Positions 418 through 10,395 of a stretch of DNA of 10,445 nucleotides are shown in pieces (within the stretch, counting starts at the first letter, position 1; every line of letters starts with the position of its first letter). The stretch comes from a virus. The stretch lies in UHGV virus genome UHGV-0096675. One strand, written 5' to 3'. The notes under the pieces are model-generated. The model was given only the letters and a program-made list of their open reading frames with translations, ran no database searches and was not told the DNA's origin. The position numbers and the translations under genes were made by a program.

Positions 418-734
418 TGTGCTGCCCCCGTGCTGATGAGATAATCATTTTGTGATGTGGTTTTCATGGATTCCCCCTCACATGGCTGGTGGCCTCCCCA
501 AAGGCTGCCAGCCCCACTTCTGATTCAGCTCCTCTGAAAAATCACTCTTCCAGGAAGAACCCTTTTCGTTTCTCAGCGCCTGAGCGCTTTGTACTACCTT
601 GCTGATACAGGCGTTTTTTTAAATTGCGCCCTTAAGACAGTGATCTACTTAACCAATGGATCTCTCCTGTTGGAAAAGCCCCTATTCCTGCCCCTACACC
701 CAATCCCCCCTTACCCCCCTTTCCCTCTTCCCCA

Positions 735-759
735 TAAAAACGTACTACTTCCCTAGTAC
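735..759 (-). terminator. Weak putative intrinsic terminator downstream of the cII-position gene
   Basis: On the minus strand, hairpin GTACTA/TAGTAC (plus coordinates 742-747 and 754-759, 6-nt loop) is followed by a 5-T run (complement of A736-740). The stem is AT-rich and therefore weak. Confidence 0.3.
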
Positions 760-845
760 ATATGAGGAGTTGGGTCAGTTGGTTGCCAACCTGAACAGGC
801 GCCTTTAAGCCTGCTTCTGTTCGGGTACCTTTAAACCCGAAACAA

Positions 846-1142
846 TCAGGAGCGCGATTGCGTTCCAGCCAGGGGAGGTTCGGCGGTATACCCCTGTAAA
901 GCCCTGCCCTGATTTCTCACAAACAGGCGAAGCCTTGTGTTTGCTTCATGCCTTGCCCGGTTCTCCTTGCGGTACGAAACGGGTTCGGCCTCGAACGTCT
1001 CCTGATACACAGCTGCATAACGCTGGATAGCTTTTTGTCGTGCAGTTGGTGTCAGGCTAAGTAACTGCTGCTTAATCCACTCGGCATCCGCTTGGCTAAA
1101 ATCGGAAGGTAAGATGCTGAGTAACTCAGGCGCTGGTTTCAT
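846..1142 (-). CDS. Hypothetical protein in the cII position (possible lysis-lysogeny regulator), function unknown
   Basis: ORF track minus ORF 846..1178; the track start at 1178 is a TTG, and the first ATG is at 1142 (MKPAPELLSILPSDF...). It overlaps the 3' end of cro by 17 nt and lies immediately downstream of cro as cII does in lambda. No motif recognised with certainty. Confidence 0.55.
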   Translation of the reverse strand: MKPAPELLSILPSDFSQADAEWIKQQLLSLTPTARQKAIQRYAAVYQETFEAEPVSYRKENRARHEANTRLRLFVRNQGRALQGYTAEPPLAGTQSRS

Positions 1143-1332
1143 CGCTTCGCCGCTTAGATGGGAATGCTTTGTTTTCAAAAGCTGAAACAGTCCCTTCCTC
1201 AGAAATCACAACAAAGATTTCCCGACCGGCTCTTAATGCTTTGCTTATGGCAATTTGCGTTACTCCGAGCGCTGCGCCAGCTCTTACCTGGCCGTGCTCT
1301 TTCACGTATTCCTTAAGAGTAATCTGGTTCAT
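1126..1332 (-). CDS. cro: Cro repressor (lambda Cro family)
   Basis: 68-aa product MNQITLKEYVKEHGQVRAGAALGVTQIAISKALRAGREIFVVISEEGTVSAFENKAFPSKRR... aligns by eye along its whole length with lambda Cro ([66 protein letters not shown]). RBS GAGGA lies 5 nt upstream of the ATG on the minus strand. It is divergent from cI. Confidence 0.9.
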   Translation of the reverse strand: MNQITLKEYVKEHGQVRAGAALGVTQIAISKALRAGREIFVVISEEGTVSAFENKAFPSKRRSDETSA

Positions 1333-1424
1333 ACGTCCTCTACGATTAAATACTACTAAAAGTATTAAAATGAAGGGTACTATAGGTAGGAGACATAATC
1401 AAACTTTTGGTATTAAATCAGCCC
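1333..1424. promoter_or_regulatory. OR-like divergent promoter/operator region with three 11-bp dyad sites (TACT-N3-AGTA) at 24-bp spacing
   Basis: Sites at 1354-1364 TACTAAAAGTA (perfect dyad), 1378-1388 TACTATAGGTA (1 mismatch) and 1402-1412 AACTTTTGGTA (2 mismatches), with starts exactly 24 bp apart. -10-like TATTAA at 1411-1416 sits just upstream of the cI ATG, suggesting a leaderless or short-leader PRM-like start. Confidence 0.6.
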
Positions 1425-2126
1425 ATGGAAAAGAAAAGCAGATTGACCACAGAGCAGCTTCAAGACGCAACGCGTCTAAAAGCTTTGTATGACTCGAAGA
1501 AAAAGGAGTTAGGGATCACGCAGGCTGATATGGCTGACGAACTGGACATATCTCAAGGTGCGGTCGGTCACTACCTGAATGGGCGAAACCCACTGAATCT
1601 TCCAGTTGCAGCAAAGTTTGCGAAACTGCTTCATGAGCCGATTTCGAGTTTCAGCCCCGCTCTTGCTAAAGAAGCTGAGCTGTTATCTCAGGTATCAAAC
1701 GTTACTTATCATGGCCCGGCCAAGCCGCGAGGGACATACCCGCTTATTAGCTGGGTAAGTGCTGGAGCATGGTGTGAGGCTATAGAACCGTACACACTCA
1801 AAGACATTGATGAATGGTACGATTCCGATGCACACATTGAAGGTCAAGGGTTCTGGTTAAAAGTCCAGGGAGACTCAATGACTTCTCCTGTTGGTATGAG
1901 CATACCTGAAGGCATGTACGTTTTAGTCGACACCGGAAAAGAGCCAATCAATGGGAGTTTAGTTGTTGCCAAGCTTACCGACGCTAACGAAGCGACATTT
2001 AAAAAGCTTGTAATCGACGCTGGAAAAACTTACCTCAAGCCATTGAATCCTCAGTATCCTCTCATCCCAATCAACGGCAATTGCAGGATCATCGGTGTCG
2101 TTGTTCAAGCTATGATGTGGCTCTGA
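1425..2126 (+). CDS. cI: CI repressor (lambda CI family; N-terminal HTH plus C-terminal S24 LexA-like autopeptidase domain)
   Basis: ORF track 1407..2126 begins at a TTG; the ATG at 1425 gives MEKKSRLTTEQLQDATRLKALYDSKKKELGITQ..., matching the lambda CI N-terminus ([34 protein letters not shown]). Ala-Gly cleavage site (VSAGAW), catalytic Ser (QGDSMTSP) and Lys (TFKKL) are present, and the C-terminus ...PLNPQYPLIPIN... matches lambda ...PLNPQYPMIPCN.... Confidence 0.92.
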   Translation: MEKKSRLTTEQLQDATRLKALYDSKKKELGITQADMADELDISQGAVGHYLNGRNPLNLPVAAKFAKLLHEPISSFSPALAKEAELLSQVSNVTYHGPAKPRGTYPLISWVSAGAWCEAIEPYTLKDIDEWYDSDAHIEGQGFWLKVQGDSMTSPVGMSIPEGMYVLVDTGKEPINGSLVVAKLTDANEATFKKLVIDAGKTYLKPLNPQYPLIPINGNCRIIGVVVQAMMWL

Positions 2127-2144
2127 TTTAGCTACTAACAGTAC

Positions 2145-2176
2145 AAAGCCTGTCCTCTCGACAGGCTTTTTTTTAT
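2145..2176 (+). terminator. Rho-independent terminator downstream of cI
   Basis: Perfect 8-bp stem AGCCTGTC (2147-2154) / GACAGGCT (2160-2167) with a 5-nt loop, extendable by two A-T pairs, followed by a run of 8 T. Confidence 0.8.
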
Positions 2177-2218
2177 TTCTTTACATTTCAACAAGTAAGC
2201 ATTCAACCAACACAAAAC

Positions 2219-2260
2219 TATACTTTTAGTATTGCAGATACTAAAACATCTAGTATTATT
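2219..2260 (+). promoter_or_regulatory. PL-like early promoter with CI-type operator dyads
   Basis: Perfect dyad TACTTTTAGTA at 2221-2231 is the reverse complement of the OR site at 1354-1364. A second partial site AACATCTAGTA lies at 2245-2255, 24 bp downstream. -35 TTGCAG (2232-2237), 16-nt spacer, -10 TATTAT (2254-2259), so the operators flank and overlap the promoter. Confidence 0.55.
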
Positions 2261-2291
2261 CATTTCATCGGCAAATAACGGAGCTAGTGAG

Positions 2292-2612
2292 ATGACGACT
2301 AACCCTACAATCAAAAAATTATATCAGCTTGTTGATATACCAGATTTTCGCTACAGCAAAGATTGTTCAAGTATTGATTATGGAGATATTGCATCAGATT
2401 GCGATACTAAAACAGTGTCTATCTTTGAAGCTATAAACCATATTAGCTTAAACATTTTTTCCATTGCAGAAGATAAAGAAATCAGCAAAGAAAAGATATT
2501 AAACCTTTCCTGTATCATCGCTGACCTTACTGAAATTGGAATGGCGACCAATAAAATTGGTCAAGCAGCATCATACCTTTCCGGATTAAAGGATGGCAAT
2601 CATGGCTCATGA
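2292..2612 (+). CDS. Hypothetical small mildly acidic protein (106 aa), AT-rich early gene
   Basis: ATG at 2292 (the track start at 2232 is a TTG inside the promoter) with GGAG about 10 nt upstream. Product MTTNPTIKKLYQLVDIPDFRYSKDCSSIDYGD... has no recognised domain. Base composition is visibly much more AT-rich than the flanking prophage genes. Confidence 0.55.
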   Translation: MTTNPTIKKLYQLVDIPDFRYSKDCSSIDYGDIASDCDTKTVSIFEAINHISLNIFSIAEDKEISKEKILNLSCIIADLTEIGMATNKIGQAASYLSGLKDGNHGS

Positions 2613-2796
2613 ATTCTCGTTAGAACAAGCAAAAGAAAAAGCTCATCAGGCAGAAATAATCTGCCTAATGATGGAGGCATACCCAAATAAAATGGATGAT
2701 TCAGAAATCGAGGCAATAGCATCTTTATTAAGCAAGTTAACCGGGGATGTTTGTGCCTGGTTAATTGAAGAGCAAGCCATTAGATCCAACGCTTAG
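2602..2796 (+). CDS. Hypothetical small acidic protein (64 aa), AT-rich early gene
   Basis: ATG at 2602 with AAGGA 8 nt upstream (the track start at 2593 abuts the RBS). It overlaps the upstream gene's stop (2610-2612). Product MAHEFSLEQAKEKAHQAEIICLMMEAYPNKMDDSEIEAIASLL... is Glu/Asp-rich. Confidence 0.5.
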   Translation: MAHEFSLEQAKEKAHQAEIICLMMEAYPNKMDDSEIEAIASLLSKLTGDVCAWLIEEQAIRSNA

Positions 2797-2867
2797 TTTT
2801 TTTAGATTCCTAAATAAATAACAGCTTTATTGCTGAGGGGATTCCATACACTTTTTTAGGAAAAACC

Positions 2868-2966
2868 ATGATAAACATCAACGCCTTTAAGACTGCAAAG
2901 TTATTTTGTTCAGCCGGTTACTGGGATATCGCGAATTTATATCTTAGGAAAGCATACGGGAGATAA
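2868..2966 (+). CDS. Possible small ORF (32 aa), uncertain
   Basis: ATG at 2868 with AGGA 6 nt upstream; MININAFKTAKLFCSAGYWDIANLYLRKAYGR; stop TAA at 2964-2966, 3 nt before the next gene. Below the ORF-track length cutoff; supported only by RBS and context. Confidence 0.2.
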   Translation: MININAFKTAKLFCSAGYWDIANLYLRKAYGR

Positions 2967-2969
2967 ATC

Positions 2970-3194
2970 ATGTCAACACAAGATCGCCAAGACGTGCAAG
3001 GTGTGAATATTAAAGCTGAACAACTTAACTTCCTCATGCAAACAATTCACGCTCACCATAAGGATTTTGACTGCCATCAACTTGACGGCCTTTTAGGTCT
3101 GGCTTATGACCTTGCCGGGTCGGTATATAGCTGGACCGAGGAAGAGGAAAGGATCGTATTAGCAAATGAAGATGCACAACGAAAGGTGTATTAA
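2970..3194 (+). CDS. Hypothetical protein (74 aa)
   Basis: ATG at 2970 with GGGAG upstream. First gene of a tightly packed, translationally coupled chain. No recognised domain. Confidence 0.6.
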   Translation: MSTQDRQDVQGVNIKAEQLNFLMQTIHAHHKDFDCHQLDGLLGLAYDLAGSVYSWTEEEERIVLANEDAQRKVY

Positions 3195-4789: not shown

Positions 4790-4988
4790 CTGTGTACCCC
4801 TTTCTACGTACTGCAGGGACGCGGGGGAAACGGTAGAAGCCGTTAACAAACGGATACAAAGGGGGTTATGGAAGGAGGGAGTACATGTATTAAAAGTCGA
4901 TGGCGTTAAAGAACGCTGGATTGACTTAACGGAGGTTTCGAAGTGGGCAAGAAAGAACAAGGATCATTATCTCTCCCAAGAGGAATAA
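4779..4988 (+). CDS. xis: Excisionase (Xis-like, recombination directionality factor)
   Basis: ATG at 4779 with GGAGG 8 nt upstream. The 69-aa product MSLDCVPLSTYCRDAGETVEAVNKRIQRGLWKEGVHVLKVDGVKERWIDLTEVSKWARKNK... is a small basic protein directly upstream of int and overlapping it by 46 nt, as xis does in lambdoid phages. Confidence 0.65.
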   Translation: MSLDCVPLSTYCRDAGETVEAVNKRIQRGLWKEGVHVLKVDGVKERWIDLTEVSKWARKNKDHYLSQEE

Positions 4989-6115
4989 CCATCCGCCAGC
5001 ATAAAACTGGCGACACTCTGGTTATCACTTTCACATACAAAGGGGTTCTGTGCCGGGAGCCCCTCTCCAAAATGGAAGCAAACGCGCGCGGTGTGAAGTA
5101 CGCCGAGCGCCTGCTCGGGGAGATACAAAACCAGATCGTCAGTGGCACCTTTGAATATGCGAAATATTTCCCCAACTCCAAAAAACTGGAGCTTTTCGGG
5201 GGGGTGAAGAAAACCAAAAACATAAAGTCTTACCTGGACGAGTACCTGAAAATCTGCCAGAACCGCAACCTGTCCCCGTCGACTATCAACGGTTATGAAA
5301 AATGCCTGTCGGCGCTGTCAGCCCTGCATAAACTCCACGTGTCAGAACTGACGCCAGCGGTCCTTAAAAACTGGATAGCCAGCCGGAAAACAAAGCTGAA
5401 AACGACCAGGAATAACCTTTCGTTTCTGCGCAGCGCCATCGATGAAGCTGTTACGGATGGCCTGCTGACCATTAACCCGGTAACCCTCGTCAGCGCCAGC
5501 CGGTACCACGTGATCGACAGCAGCCCGAGCGCCGACGATTACGAGGTTGACCCGTTCACGCCAGCGGAAACCCTCGCCATTTACCAGAGCTGCAGGTACC
5601 CGGAATGGGAAAACCTGTTCCGCTTTGCTTTCAATACCGGTCTGCGGAGCTCCGAACTGTGCGCGCTGCGCTGGCCTGATCTCGACACCATCGCGAACAC
5701 AGCCCACGTTCAGGCGGCCAGTGTCGTAGGGGTACTTAAAGGCACCAAGACAAAAGCCGGTACCCGTAAGGTGGAGCTGAACAGTGAGGCGCTGGCGGCC
5801 CTGCAGGCGCAGAAGCAATACACCTTTATGAAAAGTGAGTTCATATTCAGCGACCCGAAAACGGGAGAACCCTGGGCGAACGCCGACGCTATCCGTAAAA
5901 AAGCATGGGTGCCGACCCTGAAAAAAGCTGGCGTGCGCTATCGTAACCCGTACCAGACGCGGCACACATTCGCCACCAAGCATATTAGCCAGGGCGTTAA
6001 CCTCTTCTGGCTTGCCGGACAGATGGGCCACAAAGGACCGGAAATGATATTCCGCAACTACGGTAAATACCTGGCTGAATATGACGGTAAAACCGCGATT
6101 TCAGCCGCGCTGTAG
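4943..6115 (+). CDS. int: Tyrosine integrase (lambda Int family) of the lambdoid prophage
   Basis: GTG start at 4943 with GGAGG 7 nt upstream; 390 aa. Carries the conserved tyrosine-recombinase catalytic region (...GLRSSELCALRW..., ...RHTFATKHISQG..., ...FRNYGKYLAEY...). Its 3' end points at the ssrA-type att core, the lambda-like arrangement. Confidence 0.92.
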   Translation: MGKKEQGSLSLPRGITIRQHKTGDTLVITFTYKGVLCREPLSKMEANARGVKYAERLLGEIQNQIVSGTFEYAKYFPNSKKLELFGGVKKTKNIKSYLDEYLKICQNRNLSPSTINGYEKCLSALSALHKLHVSELTPAVLKNWIASRKTKLKTTRNNLSFLRSAIDEAVTDGLLTINPVTLVSASRYHVIDSSPSADDYEVDPFTPAETLAIYQSCRYPEWENLFRFAFNTGLRSSELCALRWPDLDTIANTAHVQAASVVGVLKGTKTKAGTRKVELNSEALAALQAQKQYTFMKSEFIFSDPKTGEPWANADAIRKKAWVPTLKKAGVRYRNPYQTRHTFATKHISQGVNLFWLAGQMGHKGPEMIFRNYGKYLAEYDGKTAISAAL

Positions 6116-6237: not shown

Positions 6238-6274
6238 ATTTCGGACGCGAGTTCAACTCCCGCCAGCTCCACCA
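6238..6274 (+). other. ssrA (tmRNA) 3'-end fragment: acceptor/T-arm copy ending in CCA, serving as an att core and element junction
   Basis: ATTTCGGACGCGAGTTCAACTCCCGCCAGCTCCACCA matches the 3' terminus of enterobacterial tmRNA as I recall it (...AUUUCGGACGCGGGUUCAACUCCCGCCAGCUCCACCA) except for one G-to-A change. No upstream tmRNA body is present: the int stop is only 122 bp upstream. Confidence 0.8.
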
Positions 6275-6308
6275 AATATTGATGTACTGAAGTTCAGTAA
6301 AGTCTACT

Positions 6309-6342: not shown

Positions 6343-6360
6343 ACGTCTATTGTAGTCTAG

Positions 6361-6436
6361 TGAGAATTGCTGAGAACTACGAGTTATGGCACCCTGAATG
6401 GGACCCACGAAGATGGGTCCTAAAATCGAGGGTCCC
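6361..6436. promoter_or_regulatory. Repeat cluster in the intA leader (candidate regulator or integrase binding sites)
   Basis: Direct repeat TGAGAA at 6361-6366 and 6371-6376. Inverted repeats GGGACCC (6400-6406) and GGGTCCC (6430-6436), with a third near-copy GGGTCC at 6415-6420. The region is open in the ORF track (GTG 6360) but lies upstream of the homology-supported ATG at 6441. Confidence 0.3.
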
Positions 6437-6440
6437 AAAC

Positions 6441-7670
6441 ATGGCCAAAATCGCTAAGAAGCTCACTGACACTGAAATCAAAAGCACCAAACCTGCCGAA
6501 AAAGAGGTTAACCTTTTTGACGGCGATGGTTTGCTGTTGCGAATCGCTCCCCTGGCGAAGGGAGGGAAGAAAAATTGGTATTTCAGATATGCAGTGCCTG
6601 TGACCAAAAAGCGAACTAAGGTGAGCTTAGGAACCTATCCTCACCTTACACTTGCGAAGGCACGAGCTTTACGTGATGAATACTTGTCGTTGCTTACAAA
6701 TGGTATAGACCCCCAAGTTCATAACAACCAAAAAGCCAATGCACTGAAAGATGCCACGGAACATACATTTCAAGCAGTAGCCAAGAAGTGGCTTGATGAG
6801 AAAGTCAAAACGTCAGGCATCTCCCAAGATCATGCTAACGACATCTGGCGAAGCCTAGAGAGAAATATCTTTTCCACATTGGGTGATACCCCAATTAAGG
6901 AGATTCGCCCTAAAATGCTTAAACAGCATTTAGAACCCATAGAAAAACGAGGTGTCCTTGAAACACTTCGCCGCATCATATCCCGCCTGAATGAAATTTT
7001 CCGCTATGCAGCAACAGAAGAACTCATAGAATTCAACCCGGCAGACAACCTGGGGCAACGGTTCAGCAAGCCAAAAAAACAGAATATGCCAGCATTACCC
7101 CCTTCCGAACTCCCTCGCTTCTTGGTTGCTCTAAACAATGCTTCTATCCGTTTGGAAACAAGGCTACTGATTGAGTGGCAACTTCTCACATGGGTTCGCC
7201 CAGGTGAAGCTGTTCGCACAAGATGGTCAGATATTGATATTGAAACTGGCATGTGGAACATCCCGGCGGAGTTTATGAAAATGAAGAAGCCTCACAAAGT
7301 TCCACTGAGCAAAGAAGCTTTGCGAGTTTTGGATTTAATGAAAGTCATCAGCGGGCATAGAGAGTGGGTGTTCCCCAGTATCAAAGCTCCACTCAATCAC
7401 ATGCATGAACAAACAGCTAATGCGGCCATAATCCGTATGGGTTTCGGAGGTGAGCTTGTAGCTCACGGTATGCGATCCATTGCTAGAACGGCTGCTGAGG
7501 AGTCTGGCAAGTTTAGGACTGATGTCTTAGAAGCCGCCCTTGCCCACTCGAAGAAAGATGAAATAATTGCAGCCTACAATCGTGCAGAGTATCTCACTGA
7601 ACGGGTGGTTCTCATGCAATGGTGGAGTGACTATGTTTCGTCTCAAAAATGCAAAGTTATTGCCGCATAA
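6441..7670 (+). CDS. intA: Tyrosine integrase, P4-like IntA family (CP4-57 IntA-like)
   Basis: ATG at 6441 with GAGGG 8 nt upstream. The product MAKIAKKLTDTEIKSTKPAEKEVNLFDGDGLLLRIA...DIWRSLERNIF...ALETLRRI...MWQLLT...HGMRSIARTA...LEAALAH...AYNRAEYL...MQWWSDYV aligns by eye, from memory, with E. coli CP4-57 IntA. The track start at GTG 6360 adds 27 residues not supported by that alignment. Confidence 0.9.
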   Translation: MAKIAKKLTDTEIKSTKPAEKEVNLFDGDGLLLRIAPLAKGGKKNWYFRYAVPVTKKRTKVSLGTYPHLTLAKARALRDEYLSLLTNGIDPQVHNNQKANALKDATEHTFQAVAKKWLDEKVKTSGISQDHANDIWRSLERNIFSTLGDTPIKEIRPKMLKQHLEPIEKRGVLETLRRIISRLNEIFRYAATEELIEFNPADNLGQRFSKPKKQNMPALPPSELPRFLVALNNASIRLETRLLIEWQLLTWVRPGEAVRTRWSDIDIETGMWNIPAEFMKMKKPHKVPLSKEALRVLDLMKVISGHREWVFPSIKAPLNHMHEQTANAAIIRMGFGGELVAHGMRSIARTAAEESGKFRTDVLEAALAHSKKDEIIAAYNRAEYLTERVVLMQWWSDYVSSQKCKVIAA

Positions 7671-7952: not shown

Positions 7953-9509
7953 ATGGCTAGCGAAAATGAAAAAAATCATAGAGTTAGGGTCGCGCAGTAC
8001 TTGAGGATGTCTACCGACCATCAGCAATATTCTTTACATAATCAGTCCGAATATATCAAAGATTATGCTGAAAAGAACAATATGGAAATCGCTTATACCT
8101 ACGATGATGCAGGTAAGAGCGGAGTCAGTATCGTAGGCAGGCATTCTTTGCAGCAGTTACTTAGCGATGTAGAACAAAAGAAAATAGATATACAGGCTGT
8201 ATTATTTTATGATGTGAGCCGTTTTGGTCGTTTTCAAAATAGTGATGAAGCGGCATATTATTCCTTTCTATTTGAGAGAAATGGTGTAGATCTTATATAT
8301 TGTTCCGAACCTATACCCACTAAAGATTTCCCTTTAGAGTCCTCTGTTATACTGAATATAAAAAGATCTAGTGCTGCATATCACAGCAGGAATCTATCTG
8401 AAAAGGTATTTATAGGGCAAGTAAATTTAATAAAGCTTGGTTATCATCAAGGCGGTATGGCTGGTTATGGGCTGAGACGTCTTTTAGTAGACGAAAATGG
8501 CATAGCTAAAGAAATATTGAGTTTCCGCAAAAGAAAGAGTATTCAAACAGATAGGGTAATATTAATTCCGGGACCAAAAAATGAAATAAAAATTGTAAAT
8601 AGAATATATGATCTCTTTATAGATAATAACGTCCCAGAATTCATTATTGCTGAGAGATTAAATGAACAGAACATACCTGCAGAAAATGGAACATTATGGA
8701 CTCGTGCAAAAATACATCAAATTTTGACAAATGAAAAATATATTGGAAACAACATATATAACAAAACCTCATCTAAATTAAAAAGTAGGCTTGTAAAAAA
8801 CCCCAAACATGAATGGGTTAGATGTGACAAGGCATATAAACCTATTATTTCAAAGAAAAAATACAATAAAGCTCAAGAAATAATTCAGCTCCGATCCATT
8901 CATTTGACTAATGAAGATCTATTAGAAAAACTAAAACAAAAATTAGAATCTAATGGAAAACTATCAGGCTTTATCATTGATGAAGATGATACAGGCCCTT
9001 CATCTTCTGTTTATAGAACCCGATTTGGTGGTCTTTTAAGAGCATATACTTTGATTGGTTATAAGCCAGAACATGATTACAGCTATCTCAAAATAAATGA
9101 AGCACTAAGATCATTTTACTCAGAGATAATTGAGGATTTTAAGGGTGAAATTTTAAAAAGTAACTGTCATATAGACGAGTATAAATATGCCCCAATGCTT
9201 TACATCAATGATGAGTTTTTAATTTCCGTCCTTGTTACTAAATGCATACATATGAAATCAGGTAAACTTAGATGGAAAGTCCGGTTTGATAACTCACAGA
9301 AAGCAGACATAACAATTGTTATACGAATGAATTCACAAAATATTTCACCTCTTGATTTTTATATCATACCAAAGATTGAAAACGAATATAATAAAATGTG
9401 CATGACGGAAACAAACAACATTCGATTAGATCTCTATAGATTTGATAATCTTGATAAACTTCTACAAATTATTACTCGCATGAAAGTGAGGGAACTATAT
9501 GCTGCCTGA
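7953..9509 (+). CDS. Large serine recombinase-like protein (resolvase/invertase N-terminal catalytic domain plus recombinase domain; no canonical zinc ribbon seen)
   Basis: ATG at 7953 with GAGG 8 nt upstream; 518 aa. N-terminus RVAQYLRMSTDHQQYSLHNQ fits the serine-recombinase catalytic motif (Y-x-R-x-S-T-x-x-Q), and ...IQAVLFYDVSRFGRF... fits the conserved D-x-S-R-x-x-R motif. GGMAGYGL resembles the start of the recombinase domain. No CxxC pairs are present. Confidence 0.85.
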   Translation: MASENEKNHRVRVAQYLRMSTDHQQYSLHNQSEYIKDYAEKNNMEIAYTYDDAGKSGVSIVGRHSLQQLLSDVEQKKIDIQAVLFYDVSRFGRFQNSDEAAYYSFLFERNGVDLIYCSEPIPTKDFPLESSVILNIKRSSAAYHSRNLSEKVFIGQVNLIKLGYHQGGMAGYGLRRLLVDENGIAKEILSFRKRKSIQTDRVILIPGPKNEIKIVNRIYDLFIDNNVPEFIIAERLNEQNIPAENGTLWTRAKIHQILTNEKYIGNNIYNKTSSKLKSRLVKNPKHEWVRCDKAYKPIISKKKYNKAQEIIQLRSIHLTNEDLLEKLKQKLESNGKLSGFIIDEDDTGPSSSVYRTRFGGLLRAYTLIGYKPEHDYSYLKINEALRSFYSEIIEDFKGEILKSNCHIDEYKYAPMLYINDEFLISVLVTKCIHMKSGKLRWKVRFDNSQKADITIVIRMNSQNISPLDFYIIPKIENEYNKMCMTETNNIRLDLYRFDNLDKLLQIITRMKVRELYAA

Positions 9510-10395
9510 AAAAAATGAATTCCCAATAATTCAAATTGAGATTGCAAAAATAAAATTTCTTAACCCACGAACAAGAAATAAGGTAGTGCATGAAGAAATA
9601 AAGGAAAGCATAAAAAAAAGAGGATTAAGCAAGCCTATAAGCGTAAGAGCTATTGATGAAGGCGATTTCAAATATGCTTTAATTTGTGGTCAAGGGAGAA
9701 TAGAGGCTCTCGTTGCATTAGGTGAAACTATTATTCCAGCAATTATAAGAGATGTATCAGAAGAAGATGCTTACGTTATGAGTTTAGTTGAAAACATTGC
9801 AAGGAGAAGACCACGTTCTAATGAGTTATTACAGGTGATTAAAGACATGAAAATCAGAGGACTTTCAGACTCCGAAATAAGTGAGATTACTGGATATTCA
9901 TCGAACTGGGTGAGCAGTATTAATATGCTACTTGATAAGGGAGAGCATAAACTTCTCTCAGCAGTCGAACGGGGTAATTTGCCTCTGTATCTCGCAGTGC
10001 AATTTGCAAGATGTGAAACTGAGGAAGCACAAGATATTCTTACCGAAGCATATGATAAAAAATTAATAAAAAGTCGGGACATTATAAAGATAAAACACAT
10101 TCTAAATCAAAGAACAGTTGGGAATAAAGGTGCAAAAGCAGCCGGATTTTATTATCACAAACCATCAAAAAGGATGACTTCAGAGGAGTTGATTGAGCTT
10201 TATGAAAATAGTATCGCTGAACATAAATCTGTTTATAACAACTCAAAATTCATAAAAACCAACCTACTAATAGTAAATGAGATTTTTAACATCATAATGA
10301 TGAATAAAAGCTTTCAACATATACTTGAACAAGAGAATCTTTCAGAACTACCATCTCAGATATTAACCCCAGTAAACAAAGAGGTATTAAAATGA
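9499..10395 (+). CDS. ParB/Srx-like N-terminal domain protein with HTH (divergent ParB box: GQGRIEAL instead of GERRxRA)
   Basis: ATG at 9499 overlaps the recombinase stop (ATGCTGCCTGA) with GAGGG 7 nt upstream; 298 aa. ...PISVRAIDEGDFKYALICGQGRIEALVALGETIIPAIIRDVSEEDAYVMSLVENIARR... matches ParB N-terminal domain architecture, followed by an HTH-like segment (LSDSEISEITGYSSNWVSSINMLL). The C-terminal 100 or so residues are uncharacterised. Confidence 0.8.
   Translation: MLPEKNEFPIIQIEIAKIKFLNPRTRNKVVHEEIKESIKKRGLSKPISVRAIDEGDFKYALICGQGRIEALVALGETIIPAIIRDVSEEDAYVMSLVENIARRRPRSNELLQVIKDMKIRGLSDSEISEITGYSSNWVSSINMLLDKGEHKLLSAVERGNLPLYLAVQFARCETEEAQDILTEAYDKKLIKSRDIIKIKHILNQRTVGNKGAKAAGFYYHKPSKRMTSEELIELYENSIAEHKSVYNNSKFIKTNLLIVNEIFNIIMMNKSFQHILEQENLSELPSQILTPVNKEVLK

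Follow-up and report, generated by a model that had tools for sequence, protein, structure and literature searches.

The window analyzed in this study, a stretch of 10,445 nucleotides from UHGV virus genome UHGV-0096675, carries three short dyads in a 92-bp gap between two divergent genes. This arrangement raises the question of which proteins would recognize these dyads, and with what specificity. As set out below, the dyads are best read as operator cores (OR1, OR2, and OR3) in a switch of the lambda type between lysis and lysogeny, with HK620-type specificity, located in a prophage adjoining an apparent 3' fragment of ssrA. We estimate the probability of this reading at approximately 0.85.

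Three Dyads Between Divergent cI and cro Homologues

The genes flanking the gap and the dyads located in it are:

1126-1332, minus strand: cro homologue, 68 amino acids, lambda-Cro fold, recognition helix T-Q-I-A-I-S-K
1354-1364, centre 1359: dyad 1, TACTAAAAGTA, no mismatches to TACT-N3-AGTA
1378-1388, centre 1383: dyad 2, TACTATAGGTA, one mismatch to TACT-N3-AGTA
1402-1412, centre 1407: dyad 3, AACTTTTGGTA, two mismatches to TACT-N3-AGTA
1425-2126, plus strand: cI homologue, 233 amino acids, HTH domain and S24 autopeptidase domain (Pfam HTH_3 and Peptidase_S24)

The layout expected of a lambdoid switch, namely a short intergenic region from which cI (HTH plus S24) and cro are transcribed divergently, was thus found, and the centres of the dyads were spaced by exactly 24 + 24 bp. 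An initial annotation had proposed a tripartite, OR-like operator between the cI and cro homologues, and layout, spacing, and conservation all supported that proposal. Recurrence of the first dyad as its reverse complement at 2221-2231, also proposed earlier, was confirmed (it reads TACTTTTAGTA). Exact copies of TACTNNNAGTA were found at four positions in the window (1354, 2133, 2221, and 10265), as compared to 0.07 expected from shuffles; those at 2133 and 10265 were absent from the earlier list. When the tolerance was raised to one mismatch over the whole window, the site at 1378 was the sole addition.

The cro product matched the Pfam family Cro (PF09048, E 1e-20) and aligned in register with lambda Cro structures (E 5e-13). 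Similarly, the cI product could be aligned to lambda CI (3bdn, E 3e-50) over the full length and in register. Residues Q44, N52, and N55 of lambda CI, as well as its K3/K4 arm, were kept, while residue 45 was changed from Ser to Gly. The alignment also revealed an Ala-Gly site (VSAGAW), a GDSMT serine, and a TFKKL lysine, whose roles in autocleavage are taken from lambda CI. Since this Ala-Gly/Ser/Lys machinery is kept, the prophage should be SOS-inducible.

Related Loci and the HK620 Immunity Family

A protein search of a phage collection with the N-terminal domain of CI retrieved, among others, HK620, HK140, HK630, mEpX2, and HF4s, with identities of about 62-72%; HK140, HK630, mEpX2, and HF4s carry the same cI as HK620. 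The GenBank record of HK620 (AF335538) annotates OR1-3 and OL1-3 as 17-bp sites, together with pR and pL. Its publication is given in PMC2629481 as Clark et al. (2001), J Mol Biol 311:657 (pmid 11518522). Annotated sites in this record include:

HK620 OR1: GAATACTACAGGTATTC
HK620 OR2: CAATACTCAGGGTATTT
HK620 OR3: AAGTACCTTAGCTATTA
HK620 OL1: AAATACCTACAGTATTC
HK620 OL2: AAATACCTTGGGTATTT

In a sample of 80 genomic loci encoding CI relatives, 15 shared the recognition helix QGA(V/I)GHYLNGRN (14 by pattern, plus locus L004 with a V-to-I change) and were taken as the family. Two of these encode a CI identical to that of the window, and the others originate from Yersinia, Providencia, Pantoea, Siccibacter, Enterobacter, Morganella, and Scandinavium. 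CI identity of related loci to the window was roughly 50-80%, and a CI with 100% identity was present in genomes of Pseudocitrobacter cyperus and Enterobacter asburiae. Three sites were found in 14 related loci and in Escherichia phage Fostie, centred approximately 66, 42, and 18 bp upstream of the cI ATG. Each of the 15 family loci had three dyads ahead of cI, with ranges of -64 to -69, -40 to -44, and -16 to -20. In four Morganella prophages (L013-L016) with the same CI helix and three operators, no lambda-type cro open reading frame was found in the expected upstream place; the divergent gene of these prophages may belong to a different type, or its start may be more distant.

A symmetrised family matrix was constructed from 10 of the 15 loci; the window, L004, L005, L007, L011, L015, Fostie, and HK620 were left out. 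The best upstream site scored at least 16.5 bits in all 15 family loci, versus at most 9.2 bits in the 65 others. In the latter, CI is alike in its C-terminal domain only and the dyads are different, some of them presumably 434-like and P22-like. The motif was therefore concluded to follow the DNA-reading domain, as it is present with the N-terminal domain and its helix and absent where the C-terminal domain alone is shared. On the 3.3-kb locus of HK620, which did not contribute to its training, the matrix returned OR1-3, OL1, and OL2 at their exact annotated coordinates and nothing else. The search of other prophages for the dyad, which had been put forward as a means of assigning an immunity group, consequently led to the HK620 family, by operators as well as CI helix.

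Operator Frame and Ranking of the OR Sites

The consensus operator, TAATACY-N3-RGTATTA, comprises 17 bp with a central base pair and holds information at seven positions per half, with three free bases. Comparison with the relatives indicates that the dyads are the inner cores of predicted 17-bp operators:

1351-1367: OR1, TACTACTAAAAGTATTA, core 1354-1364, centre 1359, -66 from the cI ATG; matrix score 17.5 bits, best in the window
1375-1391: OR2, GGGTACTATAGGTAGGA, core 1378-1388, centre 1383, -42; matrix score -1.7, inner core only
1399-1415: OR3, TCAAACTTTTGGTATTA, core 1402-1412, centre 1407, -18; matrix score 13.9 bits, second in the window

The top four matrix matches in the 10.4-kb window were OR1 (17.5 bits), OR3 (13.9 bits), and two sites beyond cI, at 2218-2234 (12.4 bits) and 2242-2258 (11.7 bits), referred to below as OL2 and OL1. 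All four follow the HK620-type operator form nAATACY-N3-RGTATTn, with scores of 11.7-17.5 bits; OR2 retains the core only. Mismatches to TAATACY over both halves amounted to one in OR1, two in OR3, and five in OR2, and the matrix ranked the sites as OR1 > OR3 >> OR2. The low rank of OR2 in the 17-bp frame is due to conservation of its core only. These results led to revision of two earlier claims. The graded affinity series deduced from 0, 1, and 2 mismatches proved an artefact of scoring the inner core alone. A half-site much shorter than lambda's 17-bp operators was not supported, given the seven informative positions per half in the relatives and the 17-bp sites in the HK620 record. The family model predicts OR2 to be intrinsically weak, much as lambda's, and OR2 would, like lambda OR2, rely on cooperativity.

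The OR2-equivalent site of Fostie scored 12.7 in the matrix, and Yersinia OR2 was, like that of the window, reduced to the core. In OR3, the core reads AACT-TTT-GGTA in the window versus AACT-AAA-GGTA in Fostie and Yersinia; the spacer varies and both half-sites are kept. The left half of OR1 contains a TAC duplication at 1349-1357 (AATACTACT), which is common to Fostie and absent from the Yersinia relative. It creates two overlapping left half-sites, one with an N3 spacer in the 17-bp register and one with an N6 spacer in an 18-bp dyad, AATACT-N6-AGTATT. The latter register, centred at 1356, was rejected for OR1 based on its matrix score of 3.3, versus 17.5.

The residues that read the DNA were compared with the half-site. 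According to a published Cro recognition code, Gln at H1 goes with A2, Ala at H3 with A5, and Lys at H6 with C6 (PMC6649833). The Q-I-A-I-S-K segment of the window's Cro helix aligns with lambda Q27-S28-A29-I30-N31-K32, and the code predicts nAnnAC for the helix TQIAISK, while the half-site actually seen reads TAATACY. The 17-bp frame is supported by position 2, which the Cro code predicts although the 11-bp dyad described initially does not reach it. In lambda CI, Gln44 contacts A2, Asn55 contacts G6', and Ser45 reads the C:G pair at position 4. In the window, Gln44 and Asn55 are kept alongside A2 and C6, and Gly45 occurs alongside T at position 4; we infer that CI residues 44, 45, and 55 match these operator positions. 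Since CI and Cro of lambda rank their sites in opposite order (PMC6649833), one consensus match is unable to describe the binding of both proteins.

OL Sites, Putative PL, and a Dyad Before the cI Terminator

Beyond cI, the following features were found:

2133-2143 (17-bp frame 2130-2146): core dyad, TACTAACAGTA, between the cI stop codon and the terminator; matrix score -4.3, core only
2145-2177, plus strand: intrinsic terminator after cI, 10-pair stem followed by a T run
2218-2234, core 2221-2231: OL2-like site, CTATACTTTTAGTATTG, over the PL -35; third-best match in the window, 12.4 bits
2232-2259, plus strand: putative PL, read from the sequence as TTGCAG (2232-2237), a 16-bp spacer, and TATTAT (2254-2259)
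2242-2258: OL1-like site, TAAAACATCTAGTATTA, located between the two hexamers of PL (-35 and -10), with a spacing of 24 bp to OL2; fourth-best match, 11.7 bits

The operator sequence thus recurs at a second early promoter beyond cI, with two sites instead of three. Of the earlier statement that a dyad is shared with the PL-like region, the site at 2218-2234 was retained, while the second site, at 2242-2258, had been missed. A counterpart of the OL2-like site was found in Yersinia and HK620. A third OL site, sought approximately 21 bp upstream of 2226 as in relatives, was not found (matrix score -29.8); most relatives and lambda have three OL sites, versus two in the window. The sequence TTGCAG-N16-TATTAT also occurs, in the same arrangement, in Yersinia locus L006, and the annotated pL of HK620 is the counterpart of the putative PL. 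This promoter would drive early-left genes from 2292.

The core dyad at 2133-2143 is located 88 bp upstream of OL2. It was kept in a 94%-identical E. coli prophage although the flanking bases differ, and was absent from both Fostie and Yersinia. Its status as an operator is uncertain. The exact TACTAATAGTA at 10265-10275 falls within the AT-rich gene for a ParB-like protein on the neighbouring island and scored -1.9 in the matrix; it was rejected as an operator and is probably due to chance.

In three loci (L008, L010, and L011, from Providencia, Siccibacter, and Enterobacter prophages), additional genes, comparable to rexAB in lambda, separate cI from the three OL sites, which are found 1.7-2.4 kb past it. 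OL follows cI after only about 0.1 kb in Yersinia, Pantoea, and the window. The distance between OR and OL is therefore highly variable within one immunity family.

Putative Promoters and Proposed Switch Mechanism

Two promoters were assigned to the intergenic region:

1390-1425, plus strand: putative PRM, -35 GAGACA (1390-1395), 17-bp spacer, -10 TTAAAT (1413-1418), predicted start at 1425 (the A of the cI ATG) or close to it
1347-1355, minus strand: putative PR -10, TAGTAT (1355-1350) or TATTTA (1352-1347), over the cro-proximal half of OR1, by analogy with HK620 pR

Over 600-3000, a consensus scan for sigma-70 promoters and terminators detected the cI terminator, but neither a promoter within 1333-1424 nor the proposed PL. 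Candidate hexamers do exist, and the operator offsets are as in lambda. In view of the silent scan, the promoter positions therefore rest on analogy. The GAGACA hexamer is common to the window, Fostie, and Yersinia. In the proposed layout of PRM, OR2 abuts the -35 and OR3 lies over the promoter. The -35 of PR is a poor match, at the edge of OR2. No Shine-Dalgarno sequence is present before the cI ATG, and the cI mRNA is probably leaderless.

By analogy with lambda, each 17-bp operator would be recognized by the CI homologue and by the Cro homologue, each as a dimer. CI bound to the strong OR1 would help to fill the weak OR2 through dimer-dimer contacts, thereby blocking PR, whose putative -10 lies over OR1. 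From OR2, centred 42 bp upstream of the cI start, CI would activate PRM, and binding of Cro or excess CI to OR3, which lies over PRM, would shut off cI. Binding of CI to OL1 and OL2, over PL, would repress that promoter, and RecA-stimulated cleavage of CI would result in prophage induction. Cooperative CI binding and bistability are plausible components of this scheme.

Alternative Interpretations

An unlikely alternative is that the window, Fostie, and Yersinia represent a sub-lineage in which the HK620/lambda switch has been rewired. This interpretation would combine a core-only OR2 that can be filled only cooperatively, two OL sites, an extra site before the terminator, the OR1 TAC duplication, and altered Cro helices. 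The pre-terminator site occurs in the window and close relatives and the TAC duplication in the window and Fostie, while Cro helices of the window, Fostie, and Yersinia have Thr at H0 and Ile or Met at H2, instead of His and Thr. If this interpretation were correct, these changes could alter the discrimination between sites by CI versus Cro.

The main competing interpretation, which is distinctly unlikely, is that the switch operates with two sites, with OR2 and the dyad at 2133 as decayed remnants and neither cooperativity between OR1 and OR2 nor activation of PRM from -42. The matrix scores of these sites (-1.7 and -4.3) and the equally truncated OR2 of Yersinia are consistent with such decay. 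A precedent is provided by phage 933W, whose repressor was reported to bind adjacent sites non-cooperatively (PMC3317979), so that not all lambdoid switches are cooperative. However, the OR2 core has only one mismatch in eight specified bases and occupies the exact midpoint, -42, as in every relative and in lambda. Moreover, OR2 of Fostie, in the same module, still scores 12.7, and the C-terminal domain of CI aligns over its full length with that of lambda CI. In lambda itself, OR2 is intrinsically weak and filled cooperatively, which also counts against a two-site switch.

Binding of the dyads by a protein other than CI or Cro, either another phage regulator or a host factor, is very improbable. 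Across the 80 loci, the motif tracks the N-terminal domain and helix of CI rather than its C-terminal domain or the neighbouring genes. In addition, the Cro code fits the half-site, and the HK620 record labels such sites OR and OL.

The possibility that an intergenic region as AT-rich as this one (33% G+C) contains such palindromes by chance, which is the probable explanation of the exact core dyad at 10265, can be considered effectively refuted by the conservation of the dyads across genera with varying spacers and by shuffling at the region's own composition. In 5000 shuffles of the 92-bp intergenic region, scored for dyads of arbitrary 4-mers around an N3 spacer at all periods of 20-26 bp, the observed total of three mismatches was matched once (P about 2e-4). 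The initial observation of three evenly spaced dyads with 0, 1, and 2 mismatches and a 24-bp period was thereby upheld. In the 17-bp frame, none of 2000 shuffles was as good as the observed value.

Genomic Context of the Proposed Switch

Genes for a helicase and for a primase lie upstream of the switch, an arrangement also found in phages Fostie and YP3. The region past the cI terminator contains genes without a known function, together with those for an excisionase and for an integrase (4943-6115). Two small early-left proteins, encoded at 2593-2796 and 2970-3194, are probably paralogues of unknown function, since each matches both phrog_1478 and phrog_8959.

Between the helicase start and a phrog_852 gene, a 428-bp stretch without a convincing gene (419-845) was about 90-95% conserved in YP3, Fostie, and the E. 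coli prophage, despite the different immunity module of YP3. Within it are several hairpins, an extended run of pyrimidines (about 690-735), and the sequence GTACTA-N6-TAGTAC (742-759), a dyad of which the outer GTAC...CTAGTAC is retained by all four. This dyad was rejected as an operator because of its wrong spacing and its conservation in YP3. The stretch may represent a replication origin for the helicase and primase, or a non-coding RNA. Searches of the window with Rfam (including 419-845) and with ARAGORN yielded no matches and no complete tmRNA gene.

Just past the prophage integrase, ggacgcgagttcaactcccgccagctccacca at 6246-6276 presumably corresponds to the 3' end of ssrA (tmRNA), which it resembles. 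Further along are genes for a second integrase (6360-7670) and for a serine recombinase (7953-9509), and then a ParB-like gene (9499-10395). This arrangement suggests two mobile elements in tandem at an ssrA attachment site.

Comparison With Known Switches

The closest counterparts of the switch were found in prophages and in one phage isolate. Prophages of P. cyperus, E. asburiae, and E. coli have an OR identical to that of the window, and Escherichia phage Fostie (PP925832) carries the same module with three sites, including the OR1 TAC duplication. The same module and three sites also occur in prophages of Yersinia massiliensis and Yersinia vastinensis. None of these Fostie, P. cyperus, E. 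asburiae, E. coli, and Yersinia records carries an operator annotation, and cI of Fostie is labelled as a hypothetical protein. A literature search on Fostie, YP3, ENT39118, and phi467 returned nothing useful.

CI and Cro are homologous to their lambda counterparts over their full length, and CI keeps the autocleavage residues. As in lambda, the predicted operators span 17 bp around a central base pair, and the spacing of OL sites is 24 bp. The A of the lambda cI ATG is also the PRM start. Relative to this A, the centres of OR3, OR2, and OR1 are at 19, 42, and 66 bp in the lambda record, versus 18, 42, and 66 bp in the window. The lambda half-site consensus is TATCACC; it has A2, A5, and C6 in common with TAATACY and differs at positions 3, 4, and 7, and residue 45 of CI is Gly in the window versus Ser in lambda. 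OL and OR are separated by 0.87 kb in the window, which has no rex genes, versus about 2.4 kb in lambda. The family matrix found no site in the lambda immunity region, and the two phages should therefore be heteroimmune. The earlier view that the specificity is distinct from that of lambda thus stands, but this specificity is not new. Comparison of operators and proteins identifies it as the already known HK620 type.

Three OR sites with a spacing of about 24 bp are common to HK620 and the window, and the annotated pR -10 of HK620 overlaps OR1, as does the putative PR -10 of the window. The same DNA-reading residues were found in both repressors and both Cro proteins. The CI proteins are 63% identical, with an identical recognition helix (QGAVGHYLNGRN), and the Cro proteins, both with the lambda-Cro fold, are 44% identical and share Q/A/K at H1/H3/H6, with T/I in the window versus I/C in HK620 at H0/H2. 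Unlike HK620, the window has an OR2 reduced to its inner core, a TAC duplication in OR1, two OL sites instead of three, and a core-only dyad before the cI terminator. Its cro leader is shorter, with 27 bp from the OR1 centre to the cro ATG versus 39 bp in HK620. The surroundings also differ, in that the window carries a helicase/primase replication module and is not P22-like; homologues of N, cII, and O were not recognised in the window by Pfam or PHROGs.

By these comparisons, the prophage, which is of an Enterobacter/Pseudocitrobacter type, falls into the HK620 immunity family, as does phage Fostie, and possible cross-immunity with HK620, HK140, HK630, and mEpX2 is predicted. No new mechanism is revealed; the value of the locus lies in annotation and in the comparison of operator-repressor co-evolution, to which about 15 natural sets of operators, repressor, and Cro are added that are in line with the published Cro recognition code.
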